From Schmidtea polychroa (taxonomy: Eukaryota), in NCBI GenBank assembly GCA_044892525.1, contig CM097886.1:114514001-114578000 (forward strand): a stretch of DNA of 64,000 nucleotides. The letters are read 5' to 3'. Both the position numbers and the translations under genes were made by a program. Below the pieces are notes generated by a model. That model did no database searches. It was not told where the DNA came from and saw only the letters and a program-made list of their open reading frames with translations. This document shows, piece by piece, positions 3,506-53,649 of the stretch. Numbering within the stretch: position 1 is the first letter of the stretch; every line of letters starts with the position of its first letter.

Positions 3506-4382
3506 ATTTTCTCCATTGAATTTATTAAAAAGAGAGCTTGAAGACTATAAATCAGTAATATCATAATAGTAATAATAATTCAAAAACCAAGTACTCACAA
3601 CAGCCAAGTAAAAACAACCTTGTACTAACAACCACATACCTACGCATAAAATAATAATAATTAAAGACTTAACAAAATTTATTCATCAAGTATTTGCTTA
3701 TAATAAGCTCTTCCTTATTCAGCAAGCAGATTATTTCTTATATTCTTGTCAAAGTCTAAAAGGTCAACCCCACATACCCATTGTACCATGTACTAACAAC
3801 TATGTACTTCTAACAAACAGCTAACTACTAGATACCAATGCTGGGGTACCACTCGATTGAATCTGTCCACGTTACTTCTTTTCGCTAAGGGATGATTGTC
3901 CACCTCGTATATTATCCGTTTCGCCCGTTCAACTCGCAGTGGGACCCCACGTAACTTGTCCTCCAACATAGTGCCCGTGAATTGCTCCACGTTGGTACTG
4001 CACTATGCAGGCGAGACGCCAGCAAGCAGGTGAGCTTCTGCCTTAAAACTACTCCTTGCTGAGGCCTCGACTTTTCACTTACGACTGCCGATAGAAGGGC
4101 TTACGTCCGTTCTCAGCACACAACCGCCTAGCGAAATTTCGTTGAGCACAGATTGGCATTTGTTTACTGAATCTCTAAAGTTTTTAGCTCGACGTCCTTA
4201 ATCATAATCAGACTAATCTTGAAAGGGAAAGAAAACAAAATAAACAGTAAGATTTATTGATCACCATATTATAACACAGAACTTAACCATGCACATTTCA
4301 ATGTTTTTAATAGGCAGGGGAGATATCACAACAAAGGTAGATGGAGTCTTTGAACGTCATTATGAACGCTCACCGTGGCCTC

Positions 4383-5131
4383 CTACTTCTTCCATTCCGT
4401 ATCGGCGAGTAACTCATCCAAATCAAAGAACTCGGAGGCGTTCTCCTCCCAGGTTACTCCGGTTGCTGAAATAACTCGTGCTGGGGGTCCGGTAGTTAGG
4501 TCTACGGTGCGTGAGAATCGTTAATGCTAGTTGGATTTTCCGTTGAAGAGACGTTCGGCTTTGTAGATGCACGCTCACGCTGTCTCTTTTTGCGTTCAGC
4601 ACGTGACAGTTGCCGACGCTTAGGCTTTGAGGAGCTACTGATGACGAGAGGCAGGGCGGAGGTAGAAACGATAGATGGAGTCGTTTTGCTGGTGCCGGTA
4701 AAGATCATGTCGGCTGGCTTGGGCGAGAGCTGAGTCTCTATGCACCCTCTGCAAGGCTTTCTAGACGGTGACGACGACTTTGACGAGGTGTCGTGGTGCC
4801 TTGGGAAGAGCTGATCGGCTTCGCCTATAGGAATTTGGACAATTTGCCGGGTGGCGGCTGCCTGGATATAGACTTTGTGCAGCGCCTCAGACTGCTCCTT
4901 GATTAGACTTCTCTGGGCACGGCTCTCAGAGATTAGAGCGTCCCGGCAATGCTCACTACGATGGAGCTTCTTCTGGGTCTCTTTCATCTGAGCGGGACTG
5001 AACCACGTCCCCTCTAGCTCATCGATCTTTCTTTTGTATTTCCCAATCTGGGTTTGTAAGTCCTTGATGATGGCGTTTTTGTCCGAGCAAGAAAAACAAG
5101 GACGTAACGTAGGCTTGGCAGTTGGTATCAT
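4383..5131 (-). pseudogene. LTR-encoded ORF, 3' LTR copy, frameshifted near the C-terminus
   Basis: Nearly identical to 35327-36076. A 1-nt deletion near 4508 (ggtgcgtg vs ggtcgcgtg) gives the premature end SHAP* at 4502. Confidence 0.85.
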
Positions 5132-6347
5132 GATAACTATAAAGGCAAATGTGAGATGTGGAACATACAAGATTCAATTTTAAAATATGGACTCGATTAG
5201 CTGGCTATTCGCGGGTATTCAACGAACACCAAGAAAAAACTTATTTTAACATCCAAATCTGTTACTTAGATTCTTACAGCAAAATTCAACTTAAACATAT
5301 ATTGTCGATTTGACGAATGCGAAAAAAAAGGATGGTGAAATTTCCCATGTTGGTGAAACGATTTTAATTCGCAGCTCTCCCTTTGATTTATTCAATTAAG
5401 TAGTTACGCAAGTAAGTTCATTGGAGATTGATATTCAATTACTACCCTGGGCTCGTATTCACCATTATCCATTTCAAAATTCCTATGTCGTTATTTAAAG
5501 AATTTGTTTATTTCCATTCAAACACTCGGTGTTATCGTTTACAATTTGCAGTGATTAGTTATTATGCGTCACGTGCAAGGATCGCACACTCTATTTACCA
5601 TGAGTATGTACAGCGGCGACGATTATCCTTATCACTTAGTTCACTACGCACGATCGTCGCTTGACCCGAACGGAGATTGATAGTAGATAATCGATCCTGC
5701 GAATTCTAATATCTGTTGTTATCATTGGTTGCTCACACTACTTAGCCTGTCATGATATGAAAATCTACCGGTCTAACATCTGCGAATCGACGGCTTACGA
5801 GATTCACTAGCCAACATACTTATCTACTAGCATTCGTCGGGGTGAGAATTCAAATGCATACGTCCTGTGTCAGAACAGTTGTGTGTTAATTATGCAATCT
5901 CCCATTCATATTCGGTACAGATGTCACCAACCATGAGTGGATATCGTTCAACAGGAGTTTGTGCACTAGCTCGGGTGACGTAGAAAGCTTTGGATATTAT
6001 CTCACTGTCCGCAAATTCACGCTCGTCTACAATGTTGGAATTAATTGCTGTAATTCGAAAATTCCTTTATGTTGTGATGCTTCAAAATAAAAGAAAATCA
6101 AATGATATCCTCGAGCCGTGTTCCCGGGAAGATATTCCGAATGCGATGCAGAATGGACACTTATTCAGATAGTAGGAATTTATTTCCTAACTGTATTAAA
6201 TAAAATGTTAAAGTAACTGTAGTCTTCCGTTTTAATCCATTTTCGTATTATGTCACTTATCTGAATGCCAAAAAACATAAATTCTCGACTCTGGCTTATT
6301 AGCGAAATTTGTTCATGAAATTTAATGCTGGAGTGTCGTAGATGAGT

Positions 6348-9230
6348 AAAAAAAATCAAATTTTATTTTAATCAAAACGCGGGTCACAAGGCCAAGAAGG
6401 GGAGATCGATTCTCACCCTTAAGAATTCTGCAGCTTTTAGTCAAATAATCGAAGGATATCAGAGTTATAAACTCCGATATCAGAACGTGGTTTTCCCTGA
6501 AAACTCCAGTCAGGTTTTTTGAGGGGATCCTTTCTGATGCTCCTGGCAATTGATCATTCTCTTTTAAGGTAAGCATCATTGGGCAGTGTAGGGGATAATC
6601 ATGGCTAATCATGAACATGATCAGCCATGGCCCATATAGATGCACCTGGCAATCATTCATTGGAGGTTGATTAGGAGAGGCAGAGCAAGTCCATCCTCTG
6701 TCAGGTGAGTTTCAGTTTCCGCCGGATCCAATTGAATTCTGTGGAGGTGTTCCAATCAGGTCCAATCATGTCAGGACGGATTTTCAGACGTATTTTCAGG
6801 TAGTAATTTTTGGAATGTTATTTGATTCCGCCGGATCCAATTGAATTCTGAAGAGGTGCTCCAATTAGGTCTGGTCGGATTTCGAAGTTTATCATATCCT
6901 CTGTCAGTTTGAGTTTCTGCTGGATCTAATTGGAGGAGAAATTCCAAACAGGTCAGGATGGACAGTTTCAGCTTCAGTGTTATAAATGGAATGGTTCTGA
7001 AGGAAATGGTTAATTTTTTCGGAGTAGAAAGACTATTGGTGATATTTGTAGCGTTGGATAATTTAATATAATATAATATAGCCTATAGAATGTTAAAGGT
7101 ATGAGAAAGATATAATAGAGATAGCAAGACATTAGATAAAAAAAGGATTAACTGTCAATGGGCGGGATCCATACAAGGATCCCTACAAGTACCCAATGAC
7201 GGTTGGGTAAAGAGACCTAATGTCTCCTTTTTTTCTTCTTTTTACCATTGTTCTTTGGTTTTTCTCGTTCAGGCAAGTTTATAGGATTGTCAGTTGAGTT
7301 AATAAACATAGTAGATTGGTCTATGACATCAGGATTTAGGTTTTCGGACAGGTGAGAGTATGCCGTGTTGACAGATGAGATAATTTTGCCAGCTAATTGT
7401 GGGTCTGGTAGTGACGAATTGCTGTCCCTGTGACTATGGAAGGCAGACATAATCACATCAATTTGGTTCATATGTTCAGGAGTTAGGGGTCCAGATATGC
7501 TTTGGGCTGAAGTTATCAAATTCATAATTTTATTGATCTGTATAATCGGATTCGTAGGTTTTTCAGAGTCGGAATTGGATTTGATAACCGAATCAACAAT
7601 CGTATTCATTTCGGTTATCATGTCATCAGGAGTTAGGATTTTTTGAGAGGCAGTGATGATCGGATTATCATTGTTGTCGAGGTCGGTATTGGAATTGAAG
7701 ATCGGCATGATCAATTGAGTCAAGTGGTTTAAGTCAGAGGTATGATTTTTAGGTCGGTCCAGATATGAGGCTTCAGATGATGTAATGTTATCAGGTTTGA
7801 ACACTGACTCACAGGCAGTTAAATTTGGTGATTTTGTATAATTTTCGTTAATTTTGGGTGTTGAAATAAGTCTAGATATTTGGTTCAGATGTTCTGCGGT
7901 TAAGTGCTCTGAAAGGTCTGCATAGGTTGATTTGATTGAGTTCATAAGGTCATTGCTACATCTTTGGTCCTTGGCATGACAATTGGATTGTCGTTGTTGA
8001 GTTGATGAATTAGCATGGATATTTGATCTAGATGCTCGGTCGTAAGGGGTTCGGATAGGTCTTGATAGTTTGAGTTGATGGAGTTTATGAGTTCCGATAT
8101 GGAAGTTGGATGGTCTTCATTAAGTTGATCATTTTCTTGGGTATTTTGGTGAATAAGTCTGGGTAATTGATTCAGATCAGGGCGTTCGTAGAGGTCTGGA
8201 TTTTGGTTAGTAGGTGGCTTTTTTGGGATTGGGCTAGAGTAGTGGGGTCTTGGTTGGTTTATATAGGTGTAGGATTTCGGTTTCCATATTTTGACGGTTT
8301 GTTTTTGAGCATTTTGAGGTTCGTTTGTCGGAAGTGTTGTCATCAGTAGTCGTCCGGAGGCATGTGACGTTTTCTGTGAGTCGGCCGAAGGCCGGCGAGC
8401 TGTGAATGAATTTTTCGGACTCGGGGCTTACGTTTGCTGTGAGTCGGCCGTAGGCCGACGAGCTGCGTATAATTTTTTCGTCCTCCTGAGGAGGACGAAA
8501 AAAATTTTTAGCGTGGTCATTGGATCTGAAATTATTGTTAGAATATTCAAACAAATTACTCCGAATTTGTTTTTTCTTTAATTTTTTACGTTTTTTATAC
8601 TTAGAATATTTAGATTTAATTATAAAATCATTAAAAAACCAATTATCATGCTTTTTTTCAGAAAGTGTATTCACGTTTTTATTTTTTAAAGCTTGTTTTT
8701 TAATAAAAATTTCATTACTTTTATTAATTTTATAGAGTATATTTTTAAGATTAAGATTTTCATTAAAATTAGTATTTTCATTAAAATAATGATTTTCTTT
8801 TGAATTAGGATTTATTTTAAAATTAACATTTTTCTTAAAAAAAGCATGTTTTCCGAAGGTATTAATATTAAAAGAATGGGAAAAATTAAGGTAGTTTTGA
8901 TCATAAGTTACGTTTGAGTGCCATATTTTTATAGCTGTTTCGAAAGCATCTAGGAATTCAATATGCTGCTCTCGGACCAAGTTTTCAAAAGTAAAACATC
9001 CAGAGATAATATTGTCGGCATATTTGAACGTATTATGGCTTATTTCCCGAATATTGGACCCAACACAGTCCCAGCATGCTTTTCGGAGATCCTTCGACAT
9101 TTCAATGGTTCCTGAAAAAAAGTTAATAAGCTGAAAAGCAATAAAAAACTCATTGATTTCTGCCCCAGTGCTAGTGAATGTTATATGGAGTAATTCTACT
9201 AAGCTCTGGGGACTTTTACCAAAAATTTTT
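6348..9230 (-). mobile_element. Insertion in the LTR: RT-less derivative or 5' part of a NeSL/LIN-like non-LTR element
   Basis: Absent from the sister LTR at the corresponding 37292-37302. Its 5' end (9155-9215) is homologous to the 5' region of the non-LTR element at 9845-9900, and it shares the double-hairpin motif at 11429-11491. Confidence 0.65.
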
Positions 9231-9343
9231 AGCGTGGTAGTGAAGATCAAGATTCGGATTTTCAGATAAGTGGGACTTTCGAATGATGAGATGTGACGTT
9301 GTGAAATGATGAGAAGTGTAAAATTTGCATTTTCCCCAATCAC
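7217..9343 (-). pseudogene. Broken ORF1-like reading frame (N/I/S/T-rich, internal helical repeats, basic C-terminus)
   Basis: Overlapping ORFs 8234-9343, 7942-8343 and 7217-7945. Repeated motif Y.DLSE.LT.EHL.QI..LI. The last ORF ends NNGKKKKKRRH. Confidence 0.5.
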
Positions 9344-11280
9344 TGTGAAGCATATACATGACTCCCCAAAATTTCGGAATCTGTTACTGAAATCAATAAG
9401 ATATCCTTCTATGAATTTTATGTCACCTTCAGCGATTGGACCCGTGAAGAAGCCTCCACATTTCGGCCCAATCTAGCTGCGTGATTGAAATACTCCATGT
9501 CCACCGGCTGAGCTCCCGAAGGCACCTCACGCCATGACATGGAGTATCTCAACTCCACGTGTCTCATTAAATTTAATTCAATCAAATAATACTTTATGAA
9601 ATAAAAACATCCAAATTGTTCGATAATAATAAATTTATTATAAAATAAAAATGTACTTTAACCAAATAAATCGTTTACTTTATTAAATCATTTATGGGAC
9701 CAAACGAAGAGAAAATTAAAACTAATTTAAGAAAACTTTTAATCATTCATTAAATAGGTGCAATTACCATTAACTTCAAAGAGATGTTTTTTCTTTAAAA
9801 AATTTTTAATGCATGATAATCTTTTCAAATTCTTATTACCCGCCGTTACCCAGTGCTTAGCAGAACTACTGCTATATATCATTCATAGCACTGGGCAGAA
9901 ATTGACCGTGACGCTGAGAAAATAATTGTATTTTTCAATTCAGGTAGGACGAAAAGCGGAGATGATCTCGCACAATGCTGGAACCGGATTCGGACGCGGC
10001 TACGACAGAGATATTCGAACACGGCGCTTTATGTAGAGCAAACACTGAAGGGAAAAATGAAGAGAGCGGCCGATATGGACCAGAGAGCGATTACGCTGCT
10101 CACAAGAGTCCGAGATAACAAATACAGGAATAATACAAACGATAAAAATAATGAAAAAGAGAACTTTAATAATATTAATAATATTTATTCTAAGGATCAA
10201 AATAAATGGAGAAATGAAGCTGCTTTGAGACGGCAGATGACAATGGAACACCGTGACACGACTACTCCACCTCATGACCTGGACTATGGACATGGACCTG
10301 GCAGGCAGATGGCTGCAGCGCACAGAATAACGACTCCACCATCCTGTGATCTTGATTGCCAGGATGTATCCGGCAGAGGCTTTGTGGACGGGAGAGATGC
10401 TGGAGGAGTAATGAATGGGTACGATAATTATGATTACTCTAATAAAAATAAATCAATAATATATAATTCGAATCAAACAAATATGAGAGGAAAAAATAAT
10501 GACTATTACCCGCATGACAACCATATAAAGAAATCAACCTATGGCTTTGCTTCACCTAATATGCCTGCTGAAAGTAACTCTCCCTCTAAATGCTTTAATA
10601 ATGAAAAACAAAATACTTCTTACGTGAATGGCCGTCCGTTAAATGAAAAGGCATACTATCTTGACACTCCTGATCTGCCTAACAGTGATAAGGGATAAAC
10701 ATCTCATACAAGAAATCCACAGAATAATCAACTGTAACAATAAATTAATGAACTTAATGCGAAAATAATTGATAAAATAAACAATAATAACCAAACCTAT
10801 GCCAACAATTACCTTCTTCCACATCCTTCTTCTGCCCAATATGATGAAAGAAGTGCTCCAATAAAAATAAATCCACCTTCCTATAAAGAGAAATTAATAA
10901 ACAGAATAAATAAAAATAATGCCCATGAAGATCGAATTAATGAAGACTATATTAGAAAATACAGTCTCCATAATGATACGAAATACTATGATTATAATAA
11001 AGAATGTAATACTCATATTGACAATAGTAAAAAATACTATTGTCCTGACGAATATAGTTACTTTTGCGAAAATCGCTCTGCCAAAAATGGCGAAAATAAA
11101 TTTAAATTAATTAATAATGATAATAATAATATATTTAAACAACATATTTATAATAATGATATAAGTAATAGTGAATATAATAATAATAAAAAGCATAATT
11201 TAAATAATGAAAATTATAAATCCAATAACTCTAAAAATCCAAAAAACAAATATAATAATAAATTTATAATTAATAATACA

Positions 11281-16500: not shown

Positions 16501-16892
16501 GCCCACCCCCCGGAATAGACACTAGGCTAAGACCAGACCTCATCATCAAAACAAAAAGGAATAACAAAATCCACATACTTGACATTAAGGTACCCTATGA
16601 CCGTGAAGAAAACTTCAAAACTGCCAGAGAAGACAACTACAAAAAATACAGAACATTGGCAATTGAAACAGGGAAAAAGAACGACTGCAAGACTACATTG
16701 GATGCGCTAGTTGTCGGCACTCTAGGCTCCTGGGACAAAAATAACGACACAGCACTTACCAAGATAGGACTAAACAACAGCGAAATCAAAGCTATAGCCA
16801 AGCTATGTATGAGAACAGCAGTGGCTGCCAGCTTTGCAATATACATGGATCACATAACAAATATAAGTAAACCATTATCAAACACACAATAA
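13576..16892 (+). pseudogene. N1 ORF2: Ulp1-like domain, reverse transcriptase, CCHC, RLE (one frameshift)
   Basis: RT motifs SAPGSD, WRPL, LDLADAFGSLPH, GVKQGCPMS, AYADD and KYLG; CRLC...ETQAHIFNHC; KHN, RPDLII and LDIKVP. A 5-nt tandem duplication (ctagactagac, ~14284-14293) shifts the frame. Confidence 0.92.
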
Positions 16893-16959
16893 GATACATA
16901 CCAACATAAACCCGTTCTAACCACCATGATCTCAGTTAAGCAGAATATTGTGTTATGTT

Positions 16960-17328
16960 NNNNNNNNNNNNNNNNNNNNNNNNNNNNNNNNNNNNNNNNN
17001 NNNNNNNNNNNNNNNNNNNNNNNNNNNNNNNNNNNNNNNNNNNNNNNNNNNNNNNNNNNNNNNNNNNNNNNNNNNNNNNNNNNNNNNNNNNNNNNNNNNN
17101 NNNNNNNNNNNNNNNNNNNNNNNNNNNNNNNNNNNNNNNNNNNNNNNNNNNNNNNNNNNNNNNNNNNNNNNNNNNNNNNNNNNNNNNNNNNNNNNNNNNN
17201 NNNNNNNNNNNNNNNNNNNNNNNNNNNNNNNNNNNNNNNNNNNNNNNNNNNNNNNNNNNNNNNNNNNNNNNNNNNNNNNNNNNNNNNNNNNNNNNNNNNN
17301 NNNNNNNNNNNNNNNNNNNNNNNNNNNN
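16960..17328. other. Assembly gap (N run)
   Basis: Run of N; the five X-filled ORFs here are artefacts. Confidence 1.
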
Positions 17329-20300: not shown

Positions 20301-21190
20301 CAATTCTGGAACAAAAACTGCCACAAATGTTTTGACTCCTTCGACATTGATACTCCCCTAGAAACCATTATGTCCCATATCTCCAAAAATCATAAAAACC
20401 TTAAATTTGACATTAATCGTAAAATATATTGTTTCTGTGGAGAGTGGATAAACTACGCTGATACCAAAACTCATATAGAGAATAATCACCCCACCATTGG
20501 GAACAACAACTCTATTACTCCTAGCAACTCTTCTAAGGTAATTAACAATAATATAAATAATGTTTTTATAGACATTCTGGATACCCAGGAGGCAATCCTA
20601 TCTCCCCTAAATTATGAAATTACTGCCAGAGACTTACCTGATAATATTCTCTTCTCTAACAATATTGATAAGGAAGCTGCATGATGGTCACAGCATACAA
20701 TCAAGGCGTTCATATTCTCTTTTGCCATAAGACCTACTTCTATTTTCGTTGACCCCTATATAGGAAATGCCCTCATTCAGCACAACTTCAAAACCTTCTT
20801 CGAATCCTTTCCCTTTAAAGAATTTGCGGACTGGAATGAGATCATAATGCCAATGTGTCACTCCAAGGACAATTGGTTCTTCTTCTTTCTTGACAAGCGA
20901 CGTAATCTCGCACTTCTTATTGACCCTATCACTGATGAATGTCCCTCTACCTATCAAACACTTGCTAATAATATCCTGGAAACCATTCTCGACTTACAAA
21001 AAATTGTCTCTCCCTTAGACATCAAACTTCAATATCTTGAATACCCCAGATGCAGCTCTCCTTATGAATCAGCCTTCTTTGTATGCCATATGATTGAATG
21101 TTTGATGAAACATGATAGGATTACCTCCCCTAACATCCAGAATATGTCTGATAGGATAAAAAATATAATTAAAAAAATTATTAATAACAG
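17329..21190 (+). mobile_element. Second, divergent NeSL-like non-LTR element N2, 3'-truncated (no RT)
   Basis: ORFs 18852-19502, 19752-20684 and 20847 onward are all in one frame. The zinc fingers (CFCGEWINYADTKTHIENNH) and Ulp1-like domain (FESFPFKEFADW...KRRNLALLIDP...YPRC) align with N1. It ends at ~21190 against LTR-element sequence. Confidence 0.82.
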
Positions 21191-21751
21191 TCGTCTAATT
21201 TCTTCCCTTTTCCTTTCTAGGTTCCTTTTTAGTTCAATTTGTAGAAAATCTTGTTCGTTTCCTTGTTGGTGACTTTGTTGTTGCTGTTGTTGATTTCTTC
21301 CTTCTATCTCCCGGTATTTGCGAATCCACTTCTCCATCTCTTCACTGTCTCGTTGTTTTTCCTTTAATTGGTAGTTTAATTTGTTTATGGTCACTTGGCG
21401 TTCTTCCGCCTCGGTTTTCCAGTAGTCCTCAATTACCTCCTCTGCTTTAATACTTGCCCTTTCTTTCCATTATTCTCCCGCTATCTTTTCCCAGTTTTTT
21501 TCTCGCTTCCTTTGTTCATGAAGCCATTCGTTTTCTTCTTCTATATCTCTTTTTACTTCCCCCAACGTTTTACACTCTTTCTTTAACACCTTTATCATTC
21601 TTCAGTCTTCCAGGTATTTGTTTATTAATCTCCCATTCTCGCGCTTCTCTTCCCCTAACTCCTCTTTTAGCGTTTGTGTTTTTGTTGTTTCTGCTTCGAT
21701 TTCTCCTTCTTCTACGTCACTCGTGATTTCTATTATTTCCTCGATCTTCAT
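21190..21751 (-). pseudogene. Accessory coiled-coil ORF of copy 1 (internal stop, truncated by N2)
   Basis: MKIEEIIEIT... is an E/K/R-rich frame continuing through a stop at 21602 into the 21394 ORF. It is preceded by attatag|atATG. Confidence 0.6.
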
Positions 21752-34554: not shown

Positions 34555-35029
34555 AAAATTATGCTGGGGTACCACTCGATTGAATCTGTTACTTCTTTTC
34601 GCTAAGAGATGATTGTCCACCTCGTATGTTATCCGTTTCGCCCGTTCAACTCGCAGTGGGACCCCACATAACTTGTCCTCCAACATAGTGCCCGTGAATT
34701 GCTCCACGTTGGTACTGCACTATGCAGGCGAGACGCCAGCAAGCAGGTGAGCTTCTGCCTTAAAACTACTCCTTGCTGAGGCCTCGACTTTTCACTTACG
34801 ACTGCCGATAGAAGAGCTTACGTCCGTTCTCAGCACACAACCGCCTAGCGAAATTTCGTTGAGCACAGATTGGCATTTGTTTACTGGATCTCTAAAGTTT
34901 TTAGCTCGACGTCCTTAATCATAATCAGACTAATCTTGAAAGGGAAAGAAAACAAAATAAACAGTAAGATTTATTGATCACCATATTATAACACAGAACT
35001 TAACCATGCACATTTCAATGTTTTTAATA

Positions 35030-35483
35030 GGCAGGGGAGATATCACAACAAAGGTAGATGGAGTCTTTGGACGTCATTATGAACGCTCACCGTGGCCTCC
35101 TACTTCTCCCATTCCGTATCGGCGAGTAACTCATCCAAATCAGAGAACTCGGAGGCGTTCTCCTCCCAGGTTACTCCGGTGGCTGAAATAACTCGTGCTG
35201 GGGGTCCGGTAGTTAGGTCTACGGTCGCGTGAGAATCGTTAATGCTAGTTGGATTTGGCAGGGGAGATATCACAACAAAGGTAGATGGAGTCTTTGGACG
35301 TCATTATGAACGCTCACCGTGGCCTCCTACTTCTCCCATTCCGTATCGGCGAGTAACTCGTCCAAATCAAAGAACTCGGAGGCGTTCTCCTCCCAGGTTA
35401 CTCCGGTTGCTGAAATAACTCGTGCTGGGGGTCCGGTAGTTAGGTCTACGGTCGCGTGAGAATCGTTAATGCTAGTTGGATTT
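35030..35483. repeat. 227-bp tandem duplication inside the 5' LTR
   Basis: 35030-35256 is repeated at 35257-35483. The 3' LTR has a single copy. It duplicates the 3' end of the LTR ORF. Confidence 0.93.
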
Positions 35484-36076
35484 TCCGTTGAAGAGACGTT
35501 CGGCTTTGTAGATGCACGCTCACGCTGTCTCTTTTTGCGTTCAGCACGTGACAGTTGCCGACGCTTAGGCTTTGAGGAGCTGCTGATGACGAGAGGCAGG
35601 GCGGAGGTAGAAACGATAGATGGAGTCGTTTTGCTGTTGCCGGTAAAGATCATGTCGGCTGGCTTGGGCGAGAGCTGAGTCTCTATGCACCCTCTGCAAG
35701 GCTTTCTAGACGGTGACGACGACTTTGACGAGGTGTCGTGGTGCCTTGGGAAGAGCTGATCGGCTTCGCCTATAGGAATTTGGACAATTTGCCGGGTGGC
35801 GGCTGCCTGGATATAGACTTTGTGCAGCGCCTCAGACTGCTCCTTGATTAGACTTCTCTGGGCACGGCTCTCAGAGATTAGAGCGTCCCGGCAATGCTCA
35901 CTACGATGGAGCTTCTTCTGGGTCTCTTTCATCTGAGCGGGACTGAACCACGTCCCCTCTAGCTCATCGATCTTTCTTTTGTATTTCCCAATCTGGGTTT
36001 GTAAGTCCTTGATGATGGCGTTTTTGTCCGAGCAAGAAAAACAAGGACGTAACGCAGGCTTGGCAGTTGGTATCAT
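35327..36076 (-). CDS. LTR-encoded ~250-aa protein (CxxC, coiled coil, basic NLS-like segment, acidic tail)
   Basis: Intact ORF; ATG at 36076 follows the acceptor tttgcctttatag. The N-terminal ~85 aa differ from copy 2 at only about 7 residues despite many third-position changes. Confidence 0.82.
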   Translation of the reverse strand: MIPTAKPALRPCFSCSDKNAIIKDLQTQIGKYKRKIDELEGTWFSPAQMKETQKKLHRSEHCRDALISESRAQRSLIKEQSEALHKVYIQAAATRQIVQIPIGEADQLFPRHHDTSSKSSSPSRKPCRGCIETQLSPKPADMIFTGNSKTTPSIVSTSALPLVISSSSKPKRRQLSRAERKKRQRERASTKPNVSSTENPTSINDSHATVDLTTGPPARVISATGVTWEENASEFFDLDELLADTEWEK

Positions 36077-38112
36077 GATAACTATAAAGGCAAATGTGAG
36101 ATGTGGAACATACAAGATTCAATTTTAAAATATGGACTCGATTAGCTGGCTATTCGCGGGTATTCACCGAACACCAAGAAAAAACTTATTTTAACATCCA
36201 AATCTGTTACTTAGATTCTTACAGCAAAATTCAACTTAAACATATATTGTCGATTTGACGAATGCGAAAAAAAAGGATGGTGAAATTTCCCATGTTGGTG
36301 AAACGATTTTAATTCGCAGCTCTCCCTTTGATTTATTCAATTAAGTAGTTACGCAAGTAAGTTCATTGGAGATTGATATTCAATTACTACCCTGGGCTCG
36401 TATTCACCATTATCCATTTCAAAATTCCTATGTCGTTATTTAAAGAATTTGTTTATTTCCATTCAAACACTCGGTGTTATCGTTTACAATTTGCAGTGAT
36501 TAGTTATTATGCGTCACGTGCAAGGATCGCACACTCTATTTACCATGAGTATGTACAGCGGCGACGATTATCCTTATCACTTAGTTCACTACGCACGATC
36601 GTCGCTTGACCCGAACGGAGATTGATAGTAGATAATCGATCCTGCGAATTCTAATATCTGTTGTTATCATTGGTTGCTCACACTACTTAGCCTGTCATGA
36701 TATGAAAATCTACCGGTCTAACATCTGCGAATCGACGGCTTACGAGATTCACTAGCCAACATACTTATCTACTAGCATTCGTCGGGGTGAGAATTCAAAT
36801 GCATACGTCCTGTGTCAGAACAGTTGTGTGTTAATTATGCAATCTCCCATTCATATTCGGTACAGATGTCACCAACCATGAGTGGATATCGTTCAACAGG
36901 AGTTTGTGCACTAGCTCGGGTGACGTAGAAAGCTTTGGATATTATCTCACTGTCCGCAAATTCACGCTCGTCTACAATGTTGGAATTAATTGCTGTAATT
37001 CGAAAATTCCTTTATGTTGTGATGCTTCAAAATAAAAGAAAATCAAATGATATCCTCGAGCCGTGTTCCCGGGAAGATATTCCGAATGCGATGCAGAATG
37101 GACACTTATTCAGATAGTAGGAATTTATTTCCTAACTGTATAAAATAAAATGTTAAAGTAACTGTAGTCTTCCGTTTTAATCCATTTTCGTATTATGTCA
37201 CTTATCTGAATGCCAAAAAACATAAATTCTCGACTCTGGCTTATTAGCGAAATTTGTTCATGAAATTTAATGCTGGAGTGTCGTAGATGAGTCTACTCTA
37301 AGTGTGGTAGTGAAGATCAAGATTCGGATTTTCAGATAAGTGGGACTTTCGAATGATGAGATGTGACGTTGTGAAATGATGAGAAGTGTAAAATTTGCAT
37401 TTTCCCCAATCACTGTGAAGCATATACATGACTCCCCAAAATTTCGGAATCTGTTACTGAAATCAATAAGATATCCTTCTATGAATTTTATGTCACCTTC
37501 AGCGATTGGACCCGTGAAGAAGCCTCCACATTTCGGCCCAATCTAGCTGCGTGATTGAAATACTCCATGTCCACCGGCTGAGCTCCCGAAGGCACCTCAC
37601 GCCATGACATGGAGTATCTCAACTCCACGTGTCTCATTAAATTTAATTCAATCAAATAATACTTTATGAAATAAAAACATCCAAATTGTTCGATAATAAT
37701 AAATTTATTATAAAATAAAAATGTACTTTAACCAAATAAATCGTTTACCTTATTAAATCATTTATGGGACCAAACGAAGAGAAAATTAAAACTAATTTAA
37801 GAAAACTTTTAATCATTCATTAAATAGGTGCAATTACCATTAACTTCAAAGAGATGTAAAAAAATCATAATAAATAGAATCCTGCTTACGCTTGAGTTAG
37901 GCTGAATCGCAATAATGCTCGTGGTCAAAATGAATCGGCTGTCTCTGGTTCTTTAAATCCTTCTGGTTATATCTCAGTTACTAGTTGAATTGAATTATCG
38001 AGTCGCTCGTGAGTTTAGGTTCGCTAATATTTCTGATGCTGGAATTAGTCCTGGTAAGCCGTAGTCGTTTTCCTATGAAAATTTTGATTAAACAGTAGTT
38101 GGTAGAATTGGC

Positions 38113-38199
38113 ACTTACCTATGAAAATTTTGATTAAACAGTAATTTTAATGATTTTGGTGCCCGTTTATATAGTAAGTTCTTATTTGTGCGGACCAAT
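38113..38199 (-). promoter_or_regulatory. LTR promoter (inverted CCAAT, TATA) and first splice donor
   Basis: ATTGG at 38199-38195, TATATAAA at 38173-38166 and AG|GTAAGT at 38118, with the same order and similar spacing as in copy 2. Confidence 0.7.
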
Positions 38200-38519
38200 C
38201 AAAATTGAGTACCGCTTATTTTATTAAATTAATTTGCTTTTTTCCTATTTCTTTGGATATTTTACTTATTTTTCTATTTTTATTATATCTTTTATTTATT
38301 TCTTAAATTCCTTAATATTTATTGCATTTTACACTATTTCTCGTCATTCAATTGTCTTATTTAATTTTTTCTTATATTTTTTGTTTTAATTCTTATTTCC
38401 TAATTATTGTTTTTCTTATATCTTATTCTATTTTATTCTTATTTTGGTTTATTTTATTTTTATTTTTATTTAGTTATCCCTAACCTAATTTCCGAGGTGT
38501 TTTCCGATTCAGCCCAACA

Positions 38520-45545: not shown

Positions 45546-46961
45546 CTAACAACTGACTTTACACCTAAATCTCAGCTTATCATTTACAAGGATGACCCCC
45601 AAAAACGTGAAGCACCAAATTTCCGAATTCCTCTCGGTGGTCGGCCTAACCCAAGCCGCGCTGTTGGGACAGAAATCGTATTTGATCGTCCGGCTAGTAC
45701 ATATGTGCCCATTGGGTTGATCGATTGCCCCAATTATCACACTGGATTTGAACGGCCAGCTCAATTGGCTGTCATGCTCTCCACGCAGTAAATGGAAATA
45801 AACATTTACCGAGTTGCCACAAAACTTCACACTCAAACACATTTTATACCCGAATTTGTGGGAATAAAACGGCCGACTGTATATCCATGAATTTATTGGT
45901 TGCTGACTTAGTTTATCAATTTTCCAATCAAATTCTCCCAAATTTGTCTCATTCCCGAATTCCGATTCGTCATCGATATCCAAATGTGTTATTGGAGCTG
46001 CATTGCATAAATTATCGATCTGAAAATGATCACACATCCAATATCGATTACTATTCGATCACTAATCAATTTTACCTCGTTGACTCTGATCGGGCAACCT
46101 TGTGTTGAATCACCGATTTTAGTAATTGAATGGGATGATTTATTGATCAATTCCTTAATCTGTACAGAAGCATTTAGATATGTAAATATTTGACTAAAAA
46201 AATTACATCAACTATTGATTGGGAAATTTTTTCAATTTCAATTTTCAATGATAAATTTTCATTTGTTAATGAGTCTATTTTCTGATTTAATTTTTCTATT
46301 TCCGATTTATTTACTGTTTCATTTCTGCTTGTTTCATTCATTCTCATCTGTTTTAATAGTAAATTATAGTAAATGTTGAAAAATAACTAATTACACAAGA
46401 AAATCGATTCTCTGTTTCCAATCCAATCATTTTATTCTTCGTCGATTCTATTTCGTTGCGTAAATTATTGATAAAATCTAATAACAGTTTATTGTGCTGA
46501 TAGCTATCCACATAAAGATGGTCATTAATTTCATTGCTTAACACTTCAAATTTATTACATCCGAATTCAAAATATGGACAACTGATGGGATTTTTATTAC
46601 AAGTTCTAATGTGGCTTTCTATTGCACTCAATTCATCTTGGAAATCACAGTTTCTTCTTGGACATTTTACAATTATTTCTGTTATCCTTACATTTACGGC
46701 ATGGTCGACAATGATATCCTTTTCGAAATTTATCAATTTAACTTGGCAATATTTTGATTTTACGGGACAAAATTTGCTTTCACCTCCCAAATAAGATTGA
46801 ATGCATTCTGAACAATACCTACATCCACATTGCGCTTGACTCGCTTTTATCATTATTTTTTTACAAATATTGCATAATAAATCATTGGCAATTTCAGATT
46901 TAAAAACAAATTCGATTTCTTTCATTATTTTCCAAATATCTTCAAAAATTTCATTGGTCAT
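45546..46961 (-). CDS. Host TRAF-family gene, 4 exons, intact (~421 aa)
   Basis: Exons 46961-46395, 46347-46207, 46159-46076 and 46019-45546, with phase-0 GT-AG introns of 47, 47 and 56 nt. RING (CNIC...QAQCGCRYCSEC), zinc finger, coiled coil and MATH (SRPFYSHKFGYKMCL...GEHD..LSWPF). Confidence 0.9.
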
Positions 46962-47969: not shown

Positions 47970-48300
47970 TGTTGGGCTGAATCGAAGGGTAGCTGGGAAA
48001 TTAGGTCGAATTTAACTAAAGTAAAAATAAGAAATAAAATAAATAGATTGACGAATAAAATAGAATAGAACATAAGAAAAACAATAATTAGAAATAAGAA
48101 TTAAAACAAAAAAATATATAAAAATAAGAAAAATTAAAATAGGACAATAGAATGACAGAAAATAACGCAAAATATAATAAATAATAAGGAAATTAAGGAA
48201 AATAAATAAAAACATAATTTTAATAAAGAAAATAAGAAGAAATAACTCTAAAACAAGGAAAATAAATTAAATTAATAAAATTAAGCGGTACTCAATTCTG

Positions 48301-48388
48301 ATTGGTCCGCGCAAACAAAAAATTAATATATAAGCAGGCATTAAAATCATAATAATTACAGTTAATCTAACCACCTCAATAGGTAAGT
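48301..48388 (+). promoter_or_regulatory. LTR promoter and splice donor
   Basis: ATTGG at 48301-48305, TATATAA at 48327-48333 and AG|GTAAGT at 48383. Confidence 0.7.
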
Positions 48389-50662
48389 AAAGTTTAAAAT
48401 AATCACAGTTAATCTAACCACCTCAATAGATCCATTCTACGACGAAACCGCAATTAAACAATCAATCCACAGCAACTCACGAGGACTATTCCGGAATCCA
48501 AGAAATTTCAGCTGAATCTAGATAATTTCGAACATTTATTACTTCGACACAGTACCCCTTTTCGACTCAGCCTATACCTCTATTAAACACTCGGTAAGGA
48601 TCTTTTGATTTCATAATTTGAATTTTAAAGTAATAGTTATGCATATGATTTAATTATAATTTTAATTTAAAGAACTTGTTTTCTTTTCGTTTGATTTCGA
48701 ATACTTGGTGTAATTTAACGATTTAGTATTTAACAATAAATGATTTGCTATGAATGATTGATTTCTAGGAATTATTGACTTTTATGAACTGTTTTAATGA
48801 GTTATTATTTAATGCCATTCAAATTTTCGAGAAACGTGGCGTTGATATACTCTAGTGTCATGGTGTGAGGTGCCTTCGGGAGCTCCACCGGTGGGCCTAG
48901 GGTATTTCAATCACGCAGCTGATTCGGGCCGTAATGTGGGGGCTTCCTCACGGGTCCGTCGCTGAAGGTGCGACTAAATCCTATAGGAAAATGTTGCCAG
49001 AAAATTGGTAGTCGTATAGCGATGGAAAATAGAGATGTAGGAAGAAACGTTCAGAGAGTTTTTATGTATTCGCGCAGTGATTGAGGGTGTCACACTATCG
49101 TCTCAAGATATCGTTTCTACTAAGCCCAAATTTCCTCTATCGCTCTAAAGCTCTATGTAGGTTGCTCATCGAGAGTCGTTCAAATGCTATAGGTGACATA
49201 TCTTCGATGCTCGTATGTTTCACTCGAAATTTATACCTACTATGTTTTATGGCCTTCCGTGTTATTATTTTCCTCGTCTACGTGTTCTCTCAAAGATGTA
49301 GCTGCAGGGGATTACAGAAAATAAGTAGTCTCGGATGAGCGTTAGAATTCCATGAACAAGTTGTCTCGCATAAAATTTTGAATTACGTAAAACGGGTTAC
49401 TTCAACTATTTTTGAATTGTATAAAATGATTTACTTCAATTGATTTTAGAATTATATAAAGGGATTAACTTCCACAAATTTTTCTAATTACATAAACCGG
49501 TTAGTGCCAAATAATCTCAAGAGTAAAACGAAATCAAATCGAGTCAAAAAATATATTTTTTTTTTACAAACCAATCTAACATGATAATCCTTACCTAGTA
49601 AATATAAATTACCCGTGTTTCATGGAGTTGATAATCCGGCGAGGATAGGTAGGAAATCTCCAAAATATCGGGAACGGATCAATAAACCGCATTTGAGGAG
49701 TTGAGAAGTTCCCCCTGGGGGGCAAATTATATCCAACTCTTGCGATACCGAGAATCATAATTTTTCCAGCATTTCCGTGAGAATTAGTATGACATCATCA
49801 TGAGCAAGGAAATGTGAGCATCTGTGCAGTGGGTTGATCGAGATAGTAGCCAGAGAACATGCCAGCATGTAAACAGTTGAGGGCACCAGTTAGTCATTAG
49901 GAGTGGAATTAAGTATGAGAAATAAAAACTTGCATACGTCACCCGTTTTCAGACACACTACAGTAGCTAATCACGGTGTGTAGATTCACACCGACTTGTA
50001 CTCATAACAAACCAGACCGGACGTGTCAGCTGGAATTTTTGGGTTATCAAATTAAATCACTCGCAGTCATTAGATTCCCACTGGTCGGAACTAATAGCCA
50101 ACTGTCAGACTGATTTTGTCTACTTAGTAGGATTAATTTAGTTATTATCTCATGTTGAATAATTTGTCGCCTATCATAAATAAATAATTAAAAATTTTTT
50201 TTTAATGTCTTCCCGTTCATCATAAATGAACTAATTAAGAATAATTTATGGATTTCTATTCACCCTAAATAATTAATCTAAAATTAATCGACCTACGTAC
50301 AGGATACATTCATCGAAACGATTTGTTAGGAAAAGTCGGCAATGTAATTCAACTCTCTTCAAACGTTAATTACTAACTTCAAGCAATTTAGATAACCGTA
50401 GTTTCCTCGACCTAGAATTCCTCTCACCAGTAGTAATACCTCTCCTTACTTGTGCAAAATCGTGCTAGACTGATTTATTTTCTTATAATTAATGACCCAA
50501 AGGGAACGAGGACCCATAGCGCAGTTGAATTTCTTTGGCTGATACACCCATTCTTGTCTATGAAACCAACTATGATCAGTAAAATATAAATGTGACCAGA
50601 CGACGACCTTCTAATTGATTTGATTTGTTGTTCATTTCCATCTTTTCTTGCAGTCACCCAAG

Positions 50663-51406
50663 ATGTTACCCAATTCCAAGACCATTCTCAGACCTTGTTT
50701 CTCTTGTTCAGACAAGAATTCAATCATCAAGGATCTGCAGGCCCAAATCGGAAAGTACAAGAGAAAAATAGACGAGTTAGAGGGGACATGGTTTAGTCCT
50801 ACCCAGATGAAAGAGGCTCAGAAGAAGCTGCACCGCAGCGAGCACTGTCGAGATGCGCTAATTTCCGAAAGTCGGGCGCAGAGAAGCCTAATAAAGGAGC
50901 AGTCGGAGGCGCTGCACAAGTTATACGTCCAAGCAGCAACCACTAGGAGAATCGCGAAGATCCCAATTAATGAAGCCAGTAATCTTTTTCCAGCGCACCA
51001 CGAGATCTCGGGCGGGCCTTCATCTCCACTTGGGAAGTCCTGCCATGGGTGCGTGGAGACCGAGCTCTCTCCCAGTGGTCCAGACGTTGTATTCACCGGA
51101 ACTAATAAAGTGCAGCCAAACACCGCATCGTCCTCAATCGTGCAAACCCCAACAGCTTCAAAACCTAAACGTCGGCAACTGTCGCGCGCCGAACGAAAAC
51201 GAAAGCAACGAGAGCGGGCTTCCATCAAACGGATTCTACCATCAACCGTCACCCCAGTCGACGGCAACAGCAATCCAATAGTAGTCGATCTAACGACCGG
51301 AATCTCAGGGCGAGTCATCTCCGCCGCCGGGGTAACATGGGAAGAAAACGCCGCCGAATTCTTTGATTTAAACGAGTTACTCGCCGACTCGGAGTGGGAA
51401 AAATGA
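50663..51406 (+). CDS. LTR-encoded 247-aa protein, copy 2
   Basis: Intact ORF after the acceptor tcttttcttgcag (50653), with AATAAA at 51543-51548. Homologous to 35327-36076. Confidence 0.82.
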   Translation: MLPNSKTILRPCFSCSDKNSIIKDLQAQIGKYKRKIDELEGTWFSPTQMKEAQKKLHRSEHCRDALISESRAQRSLIKEQSEALHKLYVQAATTRRIAKIPINEASNLFPAHHEISGGPSSPLGKSCHGCVETELSPSGPDVVFTGTNKVQPNTASSSIVQTPTASKPKRRQLSRAERKRKQRERASIKRILPSTVTPVDGNSNPIVVDLTTGISGRVISAAGVTWEENAAEFFDLNELLADSEWEK

Positions 51407-51974
51407 GAATTGCTCCGTAAACTGGCCTCATCTTCTAGAGATACCTGGACATCTTCTGACATCATTGTTTACCCTTGTGTTTTCCCTATTCTTAGGAATT
51501 TTGGTATATAAGTGTTCAATGTACTTGTATAATAATTCTGACAATAAACCATTCTCGTCTATATATGTGTTTTTGTTTATCTTAAAATAGTCGATCTGAA
51601 ATTGGTGAATAACATTGAGAGTCGTAGAAAATGAGGAGCATTAGTCAGTTGGCAACCCCAGCTAGGAACCTTGCGATGGGGTGATGGAATGATTAGACGT
51701 AAGTCCTTCTATCGGCAGTCAGGGTTGGGAAGTCGACGCCTCAGTAAGGAGTAGTCCGAAGGAGCTGGCTCACCTGCTTACTGGCGTCTCGCCGGCATAG
51801 CACAGTTCCAACGTGAAGCAATTCACGGGTGCTATGTTGGAATGTAGGTTATGTGCGGGTCCTGCTCGGCGATGACAAAACGAAGGACGAGCGAAATCGA
51901 TGTGGGCATTCATCCTCTAGACTGAAAGCTGCACTAAAAGGGGTCATCCGAGTAGCTACCCGCAACATAATTTT

Positions 51975-51992
51975 TGGGGGCTCAGCCGGGAT
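51975..51992 (+). promoter_or_regulatory. Primer binding site, tRNA-Pro type
   Basis: TGGGGGCTCAGCCGGGAT. Confidence 0.88.
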
Positions 51993-52300: not shown

Positions 52301-52786
52301 ATGACGGAATTCGTGGACCAGATACAACAACTAATCAACTTCATAAACATCGAGAATGACTCCCTTAAAACGCTGACACAAAAGAGAGAAAGAATTAACA
52401 TCATACTACTCCAAGCAATCGGGCAAACCCCAGTCGTCCCCAACCACATGTTATTAGCCGCAGGACTAAGTCACCCAGATGGGAAGATAAACCCTGAAAC
52501 CGTGTATCAATGGTATCAAGAGAGATTGAACCACCCAGCATTAAATCTTGATTATCAACGTATAAAAGATCCATTAAGTACCATATCAGATACAATCGAG
52601 CGAAAAATACAAGAAAAACTGACCCTACTACGAACTTGTCTTGCTTGTAAACTTCGTCCTATTCGCGTACTGTTCTTGCCGTGTGGACACCTCAGTCACT
52701 GCGAAGAATGTGTGAACAACTTAAAACGATGCACGATATGTAAGAATGAGATAAAAGAAACTCATATGGTTTATTATGGTGAATGA
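52301..52786 (+). CDS. IAP/MDM2-type RING protein, copy 2
   Basis: Intact; CLACKLRPIRVLFLPCGHLSHCEEC...CTIC...HMVYYGE. Preceded by ttttaatag|acATG. Confidence 0.88.
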   Translation: MTEFVDQIQQLINFINIENDSLKTLTQKRERINIILLQAIGQTPVVPNHMLLAAGLSHPDGKINPETVYQWYQERLNHPALNLDYQRIKDPLSTISDTIERKIQEKLTLLRTCLACKLRPIRVLFLPCGHLSHCEECVNNLKRCTICKNEIKETHMVYYGE

Positions 52787-53427
52787 ATAGTTAAAGATAC
52801 AATAACATCTATGAACATTGAATTAATACGGGCGATTGAATGAGAATAAGTGTAATTGATGTGTGGAATTTTATTAAAGCTTCAATTTTTATTTTTATGA
52901 CGAATAAAATTTTGTTACGAACTGAGTAATTTATGGCTTTTAATTCTATTTTATAACTTTGTTTTCGAGTCAAGCGAAAGGAAAACTAAACTAACGTGGA
53001 ATTAGTCCCAATATAGGCTGTAAGGGTACAAACCGAGCCACCTTCGGGCGGTACGTTCTATCATACGAAAAAACCAATTGGGAGGGGATAACCGATCAAC
53101 CCAAGTAAGAAGCGTAGGGCGGGGTACCATCGCATATGATGAGAAGTTTCTACGACATGACTGATCACCATGCCAATGTAGAAATGGATCATCGCGATCG
53201 TCGTGCGTTTTGAGCAAGGGGGGAAAGGGGAAACACTCTCAAGGGTAAAGATCAAGTCGACAAATTAAAAGTAGAGACAGAGAAAATGATAATTCAGGGT
53301 AAAAGAGGAAAAGAGAAGTAGAAGCATGCAGAGTGGGGAATATTAAAGCCGAGCTGTTGAATAGTCCAGCCGGTCAAGGAAAATGAAAACTGAGCTGTGA
53401 AAAGTCCAGCCAGTTCGGAGATATTAA

Positions 53428-53649
53428 GATCGAGTTGTTGAATAGTCCAACCGATCAGAAGGAAGAAGATTGAGCTGTTGAATAGTGCCAGCCAGTCGTA
53501 AGATCGAGTTGTTGAATAGTCCAACCGATCAGAAGGAAGAAGATTGAGCTGTTGAATAGTGCCAGCCAGTCGTAAGATCGAGTTGTTGAATAGTCCAACC
53601 GATCAGAAGGAAGAAGATTGAGCTGTTGAATAGTGCCAGCCAGTCGTAA
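53428..53649. repeat. 74-bp tandem repeat x3 (each a dimer of ~37-bp subunits) in the 5' leader
   Basis: Units start at 53428, 53502 and 53576. Degenerate subunits extend upstream to ~53350. Confidence 0.93.

Follow-up and report, generated by a model that had tools for sequence, protein, structure and literature searches.

The long terminal repeats (LTRs) of a giant Ty3/Gypsy element of Schmidtea polychroa probably carry a gene of their own, in which a promoter, two introns and a poly(A) signal would form a self-contained R unit of 3.2 kb, the first intron being rebuilt in every cycle of reverse transcription. The window analysed comprised 64,000 nucleotides (assembly GCA_044892525.1, contig CM097886.1, positions 114,514,001 to 114,578,000 of the forward strand).

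Giant elements and the gene cassette of their LTRs

The window holds two giant Ty3/Gypsy elements, A on the minus and B on the plus strand (Table 1), which are Burro-like as judged by described size and domains and not by the Burro1-4 sequences. Element B is flanked by a 4-bp target-site duplication (GTAT) and measures 28,551 bp, of which 20,555 bp are internal. Its 3′ LTR lies 24,553 bp downstream of the 5′ LTR, with an identity of 99.675% between the two (L002; 12 mismatches, 1 gap), and the LTR pairs sampled among genome matches were mostly ~26 kb apart. Pfam searches of the element revealed Retrotrans_gag, zf-CCHC, RVP, RVT_1, RT_RNaseH, Integrase_H2C2 and rve domains, together with a Mononegavirus-like env that precedes the protease (PF24664, E 1.5e-26 and 3.7e-18). 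The CCHC-knuckle gag and the order PR-RT-RH-IN are as in Burro/GYPSM1. MATH/TRAF, ankyrin and RING accessory domains were also present, the ubiquitin-like (E 0.003) and Bcl-2 (E 0.098) matches were both under the curated cut-off, and BIR and dUTPase domains gave no match in the element pieces scanned. In the accessible part of the account of the planarian giant gypsy-like elements Burro/GYPSM1 (PMC6431247), the internal region reaches 25 kb and the total ~30 kb, and common features are the env-like region between gag and pol and the TRAF/MATH, ankyrin and RING domains; of the ubiquitin-like, BCL2-like, BIR and dUTPase-like motifs of Burro/GYPSM1, the first two may be shared, given the weak matches. 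Here, unlike there, TRAF forms an ORF of its own 3′ of pol, and that part of the account makes no mention of an ORF, an intron or a long R in the LTR.

The initial annotation had described CCAAT/TATA signals, a donor, an acceptor, an ORF and an AATAAA in both elements. All of them were found where it had placed them, and the signals are conserved in 13/13 divergent copies. A GTAAG donor follows the first acceptor by 144–183 nt in 19/20 copies, the ATG has a YAG no more than 14 nt away in 13/13 copies with less than 90% ORF identity, and an AATAAA is located 122–140 nt past the stop in 13/13 divergent copies (counted in element A after its 227-bp duplication), the exception being one copy with 75 nt, whose ORF is 16 codons longer. 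The chance background in intron 2 was 0.25% for a YAG with pyrimidine tract and ~7% for an AATAAA in 25 nt. In the distant clade the AATAAA is not kept as such, occurring in 1/7 copies listed and far from the expected place.

A single splice from 48382 to 50654 had been annotated, which overlooked the 47-nt intron 1 and the 164-nt exon 2. To judge from the sequence, the mRNA likely consists of three exons, with joins 48382-48430 and 48593-50654; a direct skip from 48382 to 50654 is possible, but it is not the simplest reading. Exon 2 bears, in inverted orientation, a 12-bp motif that is also present at the LTR start, and intron 2 is weakly conserved apart from one block. The RING accessory ORF, whose acceptor arrangement is kept in 14/15 copies, is likely fed by the same LTR leader.

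We have also searched for traces of the spliced RNA. No splice joint was found among the joints listed for contigs of the runs guessed to be RNA (X6, X5 and X7). In a search made without the U3 part of the LTR, contigs of X6 and X5 matched ORF, hairpin block and U5, X7 gave no matching contig, and one contig of the RNA-guess runs reads the unspliced acceptor. Because these contigs gave no splice joint, we infer splicing and the poly(A) site from the conserved signals. No DNA copy joining exon 2 to the ORF was found, the sole match being an inverted LTR start beside the ORF; this match led to the distant clade. Genome pattern searches likewise returned no copy joining exon 2 to RING, no poly(A)-tailed copy and, in the clade II subfamily, no copy without intron 1, although the absence of retrocopies is a weak one because the search patterns were tight and exact.

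Table 1. Positions of the elements, LTR parts and predicted gene features in the window
Feature	Position	Strand	Remarks
Element B 5′ LTR	47970..51967	+	3,998 bp, TG...CA ends
Putative U3	47970..48357	+	~390 bp, A-rich
CCAAT (as ATTGG)	48301-48305	+	+332 from LTR start 47970
TATA box (TATATAAG)	48327	+	
Exon 1	48358..48382	+	25 nt, without ATG; predicted start site 48358 (range ~-3 to +1)
Intron 1	48383..48429	+	47 nt, GT..AG; donor AG/GTAAGT after 48382
Exon 1 copy at intron 1 end	48405-48429	+	Exact, last 25 nt of intron 1
Exon 2	48430..48593	+	164 nt, non-coding, without ATG
Intron 2	48594..50653	+	2,060 nt; second donor 48594, acceptor CAG before 50654
Two-hairpin RNA element, intron 2	48843..48975	+	Conserved; candidate packaging signal or response element
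LTR ORF	50663..51406	+	247 aa; ATG 50663, stop 51404-51406
AATAAA	51543..51548	+	419 bp before LTR end 51967; TGTA upstream, G/T-rich tract downstream
Putative U5	51570..51967	+	~400 bp, conserved structured block
Primer-binding-site-like motif	51974..51992	+	3′ of element B 5′ LTR; presumably tRNA-Pro type
RING accessory ORF	52301..52786	+	Pfam zf-C3HC4_3; acceptor AG 2 nt before ATG
Element A 5′ LTR	34562..38519	-	TATA 38173; exon 1 starts at 38142, its repeat at 38096
Element A 5′ LTR ORF	36076-35327	-	227-bp tandem duplication over ORF end
Element A 5′ LTR AATAAA	34975-34970	-	408 bp before LTR end at 34562
Element A 3′ LTR	3838..9787	-	Promoter end lost; interrupted by insertion 6348-9230
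Element A 3′ LTR ORF copy	5131-4502		Early stop, 209 aa

The exon 1 repeat and the extent of R

In 72/75 LTRs, with 22 exon 1 types of mean similarity 0.70, intron 1 ends in an exact repeat of exon 1, and the repeat was seen in two clades. The distance from TATA to the start was 30–32 nt in all 75 LTRs. The base before the first repeat was T in 75/75 LTRs; before the second repeat it was G in 14/75 LTRs and 11/25 types, and since G alleles can be passed on, these counts do not represent independent events, which makes the Fisher P of 6e-5 too strong. In the young subfamily, the repeat junction was the most allele-rich of 772 windows of 10 nt. Counting by eye gave 15 alleles in 53 elements (100 of 119 rows listed), and the allele was the same in both LTRs for 46/46 elements listed with two or three LTRs. 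The clade with 38% protein identity has the same repeat pattern, its private changes recurring in the one repeat as in the other, and a G before the second repeat in 35/70 rows, on at least five backgrounds (by eye). A single exon 1 type was found paired with several different exon 2 starts, as would be expected if strand transfer recombined there. Intron 1 was missing from 7/82 LTRs, a loss indistinguishable from deletion between the repeats, and no LTR without intron 2 was found. Triple repeats occur in L197 and at one further locus, hence slippage acts at the junction too.

The repeat and its variable, G-enriched junction are best explained, on the grounds of sequence comparison, by reverse transcriptase copying a spliced, capped 5′ end onto an unspliced 3′ R. 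Copying of the cap G at strand transfer belongs to general background, and no report of it was found in the literature searched. Such copying would set the start near 48358 and speak for the short U3 and the ~3.2-kb R of the initial annotation; the short U3 held up, together with a start ~31 nt past TATA, and the 3′ end of R is drawn from conserved signals only. We infer that R ends ~15–25 nt past the AATAAA at 51543. This hexamer, mostly missing from the distant clade, is the sole marker of that end. A linkage test for locating R showed no clear break, because recombination is dense everywhere.

In the life cycle that would follow, transcription would start near 48358 and the packaged RNA would have intron 1 spliced from its capped 5′ end and intron 2 kept. 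Minus-strand strong-stop DNA would extend to the cap and then land on the unspliced 3′ R, and exon 1, in many cases with one more G copied opposite the cap, would therefore overwrite the 3′ end of intron 1. By default, a 5′ or solo LTR would yield a fully spliced short RNA ending at the first AATAAA, and RNAs keeping intron 2, or splicing to downstream acceptors (RING, other accessory ORFs), would read through. A point against an R of 3.2 kb is that it would demand a 3.6-kb strong-stop DNA and a suppressed 5′ poly(A) site.

The same start and spliced 5′ end could also belong to a short R of ~25 nt, with genomic RNA ending after the second repeat, the gene lying in a 3.5-kb U5 and the AATAAA at 51543 serving the short mRNA only. 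That the repeats are identical and the G is so frequent would then be accounted for without a long R, because every transfer would have to use the cap end. We consider this arrangement quite improbable, as a conserved poly(A) signal is absent in or near intron 1 and as 25 nt of homology should often lead transfer to the first repeat and delete the intron, which 75/82 LTRs keep. It is also very unlikely that the gene lies in a 3.5-kb U3 with its own promoter, genomic RNA starting near the AATAAA and the repeats being kept alike by slippage or gene conversion. Retroviral LTR-overlapping ORFs are usually in U3, TATA-like stretches precede the AATAAA of element B by 16 and 37 nt, and the triple repeats reveal slippage. 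However, the downstream TATA-like motif is not conserved, TGTA being kept instead (12/13), and a second promoter near the AATAAA was rejected. Slippage also fails to explain why the repeat starts at TATA+30–32, ends at the donor AG and leaves out the spacer, or why the variable G-rich edge is limited to the second repeat and the same in both LTRs.

The LTR protein and the intron 2 RNA element

Purifying selection on the LTR ORF, as the initial annotation had proposed, was confirmed by a median dN/dS of 0.125 (64/136 pairs with unsaturated dS), with ~0.02 for residues 11–95. Under neutral drift the ORF was open in 2/1000 simulations at 0.25 substitutions per site, and 140 of the best 150 genomic matches, which are biased to intact copies, had no internal stop. 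An antisense ORF (51465-50818) was rejected, being not conserved (66–248 stop-free codons across copies).

The 247-aa protein has a CxxC (12–15), helices at 15–94 with HC at 61–62, a second CxxC (127–130), a basic run at 166–190 (13 K/R in 25 residues, low dN, predicted helical) and an acidic aromatic tail (223–247). Its Cys/His positions are invariant, and so are F233, L236 and L239 of the tail in 63/63 copies. The CxxC with coiled coil, basic run and acidic tail annotated earlier are present; the second CxxC had been overlooked, and the tail does not lack Trp as was stated, since W226 and W245 occur in 62/63 copies, though not at the p53 position. We take the likeness of the tail to the p53 TAD to be one of pattern only. 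The protein of the distant clade has a similar acidic end and a basic run resembling a plain NLS. No homologue was found in Pfam, PDB sequences and two protein collections, where the length-limited searches covered forms neither fused nor split. Structure prediction, suggested earlier as a check, gave a weak AlphaFold model (pLDDT 60.5, pTM 0.22) with a helical N-terminal part. Foldseek found no match with this weak model, and VIA-align returned generic coiled coils only (Z ≤5.7), which is silent on fold novelty.

The two-hairpin element of intron 2 showed compensatory change in 9/48 pairs over 21 copies, gave a z of -3.45 and had no relevant Rfam family. Among the predicted RNAs, only the fully spliced one lacks it. 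A ribozyme of the hammerhead or hairpin type was dropped after inspection by eye.

On balance, and judging by motifs only, we favour the LTR protein being a nuclear regulator of element expression, an “early” product of the Tat/Rev type, for which transcriptional and post-transcriptional action seem about equally likely. It may possibly be a Rev/Rex-like factor, a reading to be held with reserve, which would bind the intron 2 hairpin and promote export or read-through of intron-retaining RNA. This would suit the helical-predicted, K/R-rich basic run and the covarying element in all predicted RNAs but the fully spliced one; according to the accessible part of PMC12789967, Rev, Rex and Rem are products of multiply spliced RNAs and have elements of this kind as their targets. 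Against it, there is no homology to known members, and the distant-clade basic run looks like a plain NLS. Furthermore, a position just 3′ of the major donor is the classic place of a packaging signal. In the hydrophobic helical tail, the spacing does not clearly fit NES patterns.

A transcriptional transactivator of the LTR, the proposal of the initial annotation, is likewise a doubtful but possible form: the tail is acidic and aromatic with its three invariant residues and has a counterpart in the distant clade, invariant Cys/His positions accompany a helical N-terminal part, and the 12-bp motif is repeated in U3 and exon 2, but no DNA-binding domain or homologue was found. It is rather unlikely, in our view, that the host (anti-silencing, cell-death, SUMO/ubiquitin pathways) and not element RNA or promoter is the target of the protein. 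Residues 206–210, which we take to resemble a SUMO-interacting motif, would fit such a role, but the motif is only partly conserved and missing in the distant clade, and there is no host homologue. Further points in favour are the RING, TRAF and ankyrin parts of the element, with its weak ubiquitin-like and BCL2-like matches, and the control of Burro RNA by PIWI, as stated in the accessible part of PMC8532177.

We tentatively extend the regulator reading to R as a whole, which might be a 3.2-kb three-exon early gene whose orphan protein evolved independently into a Rev/Tat-like switch, allowing the element to pass its own first poly(A) site. If so, thousands of LTRs, solo ones included, could provide the regulator in trans. 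The earlier suggestion that solo LTRs express the protein stands to the extent that there are solo LTRs (L007, L008) that have target-site duplications and whose ORF is open.

Relation to known retroelements and significance

In textbooks, LTRs are non-coding, R measures 15–250 nt and introns are lost on reverse transcription. MMTV sag and HIV nef are LTR-overlapping ORFs in U3. Like the present ORF they are part of the LTR sequence and hence found in each LTR of a pair; their expression uses the 3′ copy, reached by splicing from a distant 5′ end, whereas in the present case a single LTR contains promoter, introns, ORF and poly(A) signal. Foamy accessory genes have an internal promoter. Foamy viruses resemble the present elements in that their major splice donor is situated inside the LTR, upstream of the poly(A) signal, and the 5′ poly(A) site must therefore be suppressed; in the accessible part of PMC3694450, a complete spliced gene or an intron within R is not described. 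HTLV Rex/RexRE, HIV Rev/RRE and Tat/TAR, and MMTV Rem combine, as is predicted here, a small basic protein, a doubly spliced RNA and a structured element in or near the LTR, but these proteins are encoded in the genome body and have no sequence likeness to the LTR protein, and retroviral R is given as 15–250 nt versus the ~3,200 nt proposed here (PMC12789967, accessible part). The literature searched described no LTR-internal gene or self-renewing intron for Burro; Grohme et al. 2018 and its supplements, outside that search, may annotate LTR ORFs.

If true, an LTR that is a spliced gene, an R more than 10 times longer and an intron surviving by rewriting would extend three textbook rules. The junction scars would offer a DNA-only readout of the cap site and of the spliced state of the packaged RNA. 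The genome holds ~7,000 first-look candidates for the LTR ORF, and a trans-acting product could therefore shape transposon control in an animal that represses its elements by PIWI proteins.

Two giant elements and their surroundings

The window (C2:114514001-114578000 of the 781-Mb genome) contains two giant Ty3/Gypsy elements in head-to-head orientation, elements A and B. Element B carries a 4-bp duplication, GTAT, on both sides. Its interior comprises RING and gag, a mononegavirus-like fusion protein placed 5' of the protease, the RT-RH-IN region, and ankyrin and TRAF parts; the polyprotein is split over several frames. This layout agrees with the description of Burro/GYPSM1 (PMC6431247, section 7), which points to a planarian host; the element family is already known. 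TRAF-like genes also flank element B outside the elements, and a host TRAF cluster may be its setting.

In 44/44 elements among element B and loci L101-L150, the 3' LTR is directly preceded by a 16-nt motif that is almost invariant, and this motif by a conserved short inverted repeat. A polypurine tract was absent just before the 3' LTR at these loci, and plus-strand priming may be unusual. At another locus (L151), LTRs of two different clades adjoin head to head, the plus-strand LTR beginning at the acceptor of its ORF.

Coordinates of the features (plain numbers refer to the window; L001 and L002 are downstream stretches containing the rest of element B)
Feature	Coordinates	Strand	Remark
Element B 5' LTR	47970-51967	+	99.675% identity to the 3' LTR located 24,553 bp downstream
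Element A 5' LTR	38519-34562	-	
Element A 3' LTR, damaged	9787-3838	-	
12-bp motif	47975-47986		LTR start
12-bp motif, inverted	about 48563-48574		near exon 2 end
Exon 1 (repeat 1)	48358-48382		
First donor	48383		
Repeat 2	48405-48429		end of intron 1
Intron 1 acceptor AG	48428-48429		
Second donor	48594		
LTR ORF	50663-51406		247 aa
AATAAA	51543		
U5 block	51696-51967		conserved fold
Leader tandem repeats	53340-53649		between RING ORF and gag
3' accessory ORFs, element B	L001:3652-8303		TRAF, coiled-coil and unknown proteins, mostly with AG just 5' of the ATG
3' accessory ORFs, element A	25003-21935	-	as for element B
Env-like part to 3' accessory block, element A	26009-25166	-	directly joined; protease-to-integrase region apparently missing
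Nested non-LTR retrotransposon insertions	10057-21272		within element A
RT with zinc finger and restriction-like endonuclease-type end	14757-16892		inside element A
227-bp tandem duplication	35030-35483		across ORF end of A's 5' LTR; missing from A's 3' LTR
TRAF-like genes (RING, zf-TRAF, MATH)	45546-46961	-	outside the elements
TRAF-like genes (RING, zf-TRAF, MATH)	L002:8617-9231		outside the elements
Inverted repeat and 16-nt motif	L001:8480-8523		5' of element B 3' LTR

A conserved, probably spliced gene inside the LTR

The initial annotation had described the LTR of element B as a complete spliced gene cassette, and every cassette feature was found at the position it gave. Conservation was followed in 50 elements with paired LTRs, another 13 LTR loci and 20 LTRs from a distant clade with a more diverged ORF. 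An acceptor-like YAG 5' of the ATG and an AATAAA 3' of the stop were present in 13/13 copies with <90% ORF identity, against background rates, measured in intron 2, of 0.25% and about 7%, respectively. A TGTA lay upstream of the AATAAA in 12 of these 13 copies and a G/T-rich tract downstream; the AATAAA is mostly missing from the distant clade. The mean distance per 100 bp was 0.07-0.2 in the promoter, the hairpin block, the first ORF half and U5, and 0.3-0.4 across most of intron 2. In the U5 block, compensatory change occurred at 14/71 predicted pairs (12 copies).

The proposed purifying selection on the ORF was borne out by a median pairwise dN/dS of 0.125 (64/136 pairs, those unsaturated); the value was about 0.02 over residues 11-95, and 0.13 inside one young subfamily. 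Internal stops were missing from 140 of the best 150 protein matches (7,061 first-look candidates). As for expression from solo LTRs, there are solo copies that have target-site duplications and keep the ORF open (L007, L008). The cassette is a real feature. In the parts of the literature covered (including PMC8532177, PMC11410931, PMC4558846, PMC12801592, PMC13238120 and PMC9278108, with Grohme et al. 2018, supplementary files included, outside this scope), neither an LTR-internal spliced gene nor a kilobase-scale R or a strand-transfer-renewed intron was described.

The annotated single intron kept its donor, but the intron 1 acceptor, an extra exon and a second donor had been overlooked. 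Because this acceptor is followed by an ATG-free 164-nt exon and then by the second donor (kept in 19/20 copies), the mRNA of the LTR gene likely has three exons. In some subfamilies (L056, L059-L072, L076) GTAA lies directly 3' of the intron 1 acceptor, so that splicing would re-form a donor, as at a recursive-splice-like site. In all families listed, the 12-bp motif with which the LTR opens is found again, in inverted orientation, close to the exon 2 end; it could be an RNA-RNA pairing or protein site.

An AG also sits 2 nt upstream of the ATG of the RING ORF, 3' of the primer site, in 14/15 copies, and 1-2 nt before the first ATG in 3/5 of the 3' accessory ORFs of element B (in a fourth, before a later ATG). 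This placement suggests a single leader spliced onto many acceptors. Among the matches listed for contigs from RNA-guess runs, which are short and derive from a polymorphic repeat, no splice joint was seen, and one contig read through the unspliced acceptor. A search of the genome with narrow, exact patterns for a spliced-mRNA retrocopy found none.

The exon 1 repeat and the proposed renewal of intron 1

Of 86 LTRs, 75 contained intron 1, seven had a single repeat copy and four lacked the promoter in the fetched stretch. Exon 1 was identical to the last 24-27 nt of intron 1 in 72/75, despite 22 exon 1 types with a mean similarity of 0.70. The TATA box lay 30-32 nt upstream of the repeat start, and the base 5' of repeat 1 was T, in 75/75; the base 5' of repeat 2 was G in 14/75, across 11/25 types. 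The distant clade (protein 38% identical) had the same repeat layout with a different sequence. There, changes private to one LTR appeared in both of its repeats (L185, L188, L190, L191, L195), and G stood at -1 of repeat 2 in 35/70 rows.

The repeat 2 edge was the richest in alleles among 772 windows of a young subfamily (9 alleles, 21 copies). Genome-wide, the 100 listed of 119 matching LTRs, tallied by eye, comprised 53 elements and 15 alleles, 11 with G at -1 to -4. All 46 multi-LTR elements among them had the identical allele in both LTRs, indicating that junction variation arises at reverse transcription. At least five different exon 2 starts were joined to one exon 1 type (100 of 154 matches listed). 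Inheritance accounts for part of the G alleles, and slippage also acts here, as the occurrence of triple repeats shows. Linkage analysis of LTR copies did not locate the break.

The simplest explanation of these data would be renewal of the intron by strand transfer. Intron 1 would be spliced out at the capped end of the packaged RNA; strong-stop DNA would extend to the cap and then pair via exon 2 with the unspliced 3' R. Its exon 1 end would overwrite the 3' end of intron 1, at times with a G added opposite the cap. Copying of the cap during reverse transcription can add a G.

Such a transfer would place the start site near 48358, giving a U3 of about 390 bp, and R and U5 together would have to cover 3.6 kb. 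The short U3 and ~3.2-kb R of the initial annotation agree with this, the conserved AATAAA predicting an R of about 3.2 kb. Retroviral R measures 15-250 nt (PMC12789967). A model with a short R and a long U5 accounts for the repeat data almost equally well; it is, however, without a poly(A) signal and would entail frequent intron loss. For the long R, foamy-like control of 5' polyadenylation is plausible by analogy: in the foamy virus LTR, a donor that precedes the poly(A) signal can suppress 5' polyadenylation via U1 snRNP (PMC3694450).

The LTR protein and its possible role

Residues C12, C15, H61, C62, H113, C127, C130, E232, F233, L236 and L239 were invariant in 63/63 copies of clade I (families of the A/B type); the distant clade is without the second CxxC. 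The predicted structure was weak (pLDDT 60.5), with helices at 15-40, 46-94, 175-189 and 236-239, and neither sequence nor structure searches found a homologue.

Intron 2 contains an RNA element of two hairpins in which 9/48 pairs show compensatory changes, a covariation exceeding 500/500 shuffles and every slid control; a separate test of the element gave z -3.45. On the transcript map we infer, the short LTR mRNA would be the sole RNA without this element and the default product of the 5' LTR, a position that would be that of an early regulator. A host-directed role for the protein seems rather unlikely; we lean slightly towards autoregulation of the element, in which the protein may act either as a transactivator or as a Rev/Rex-like switch.
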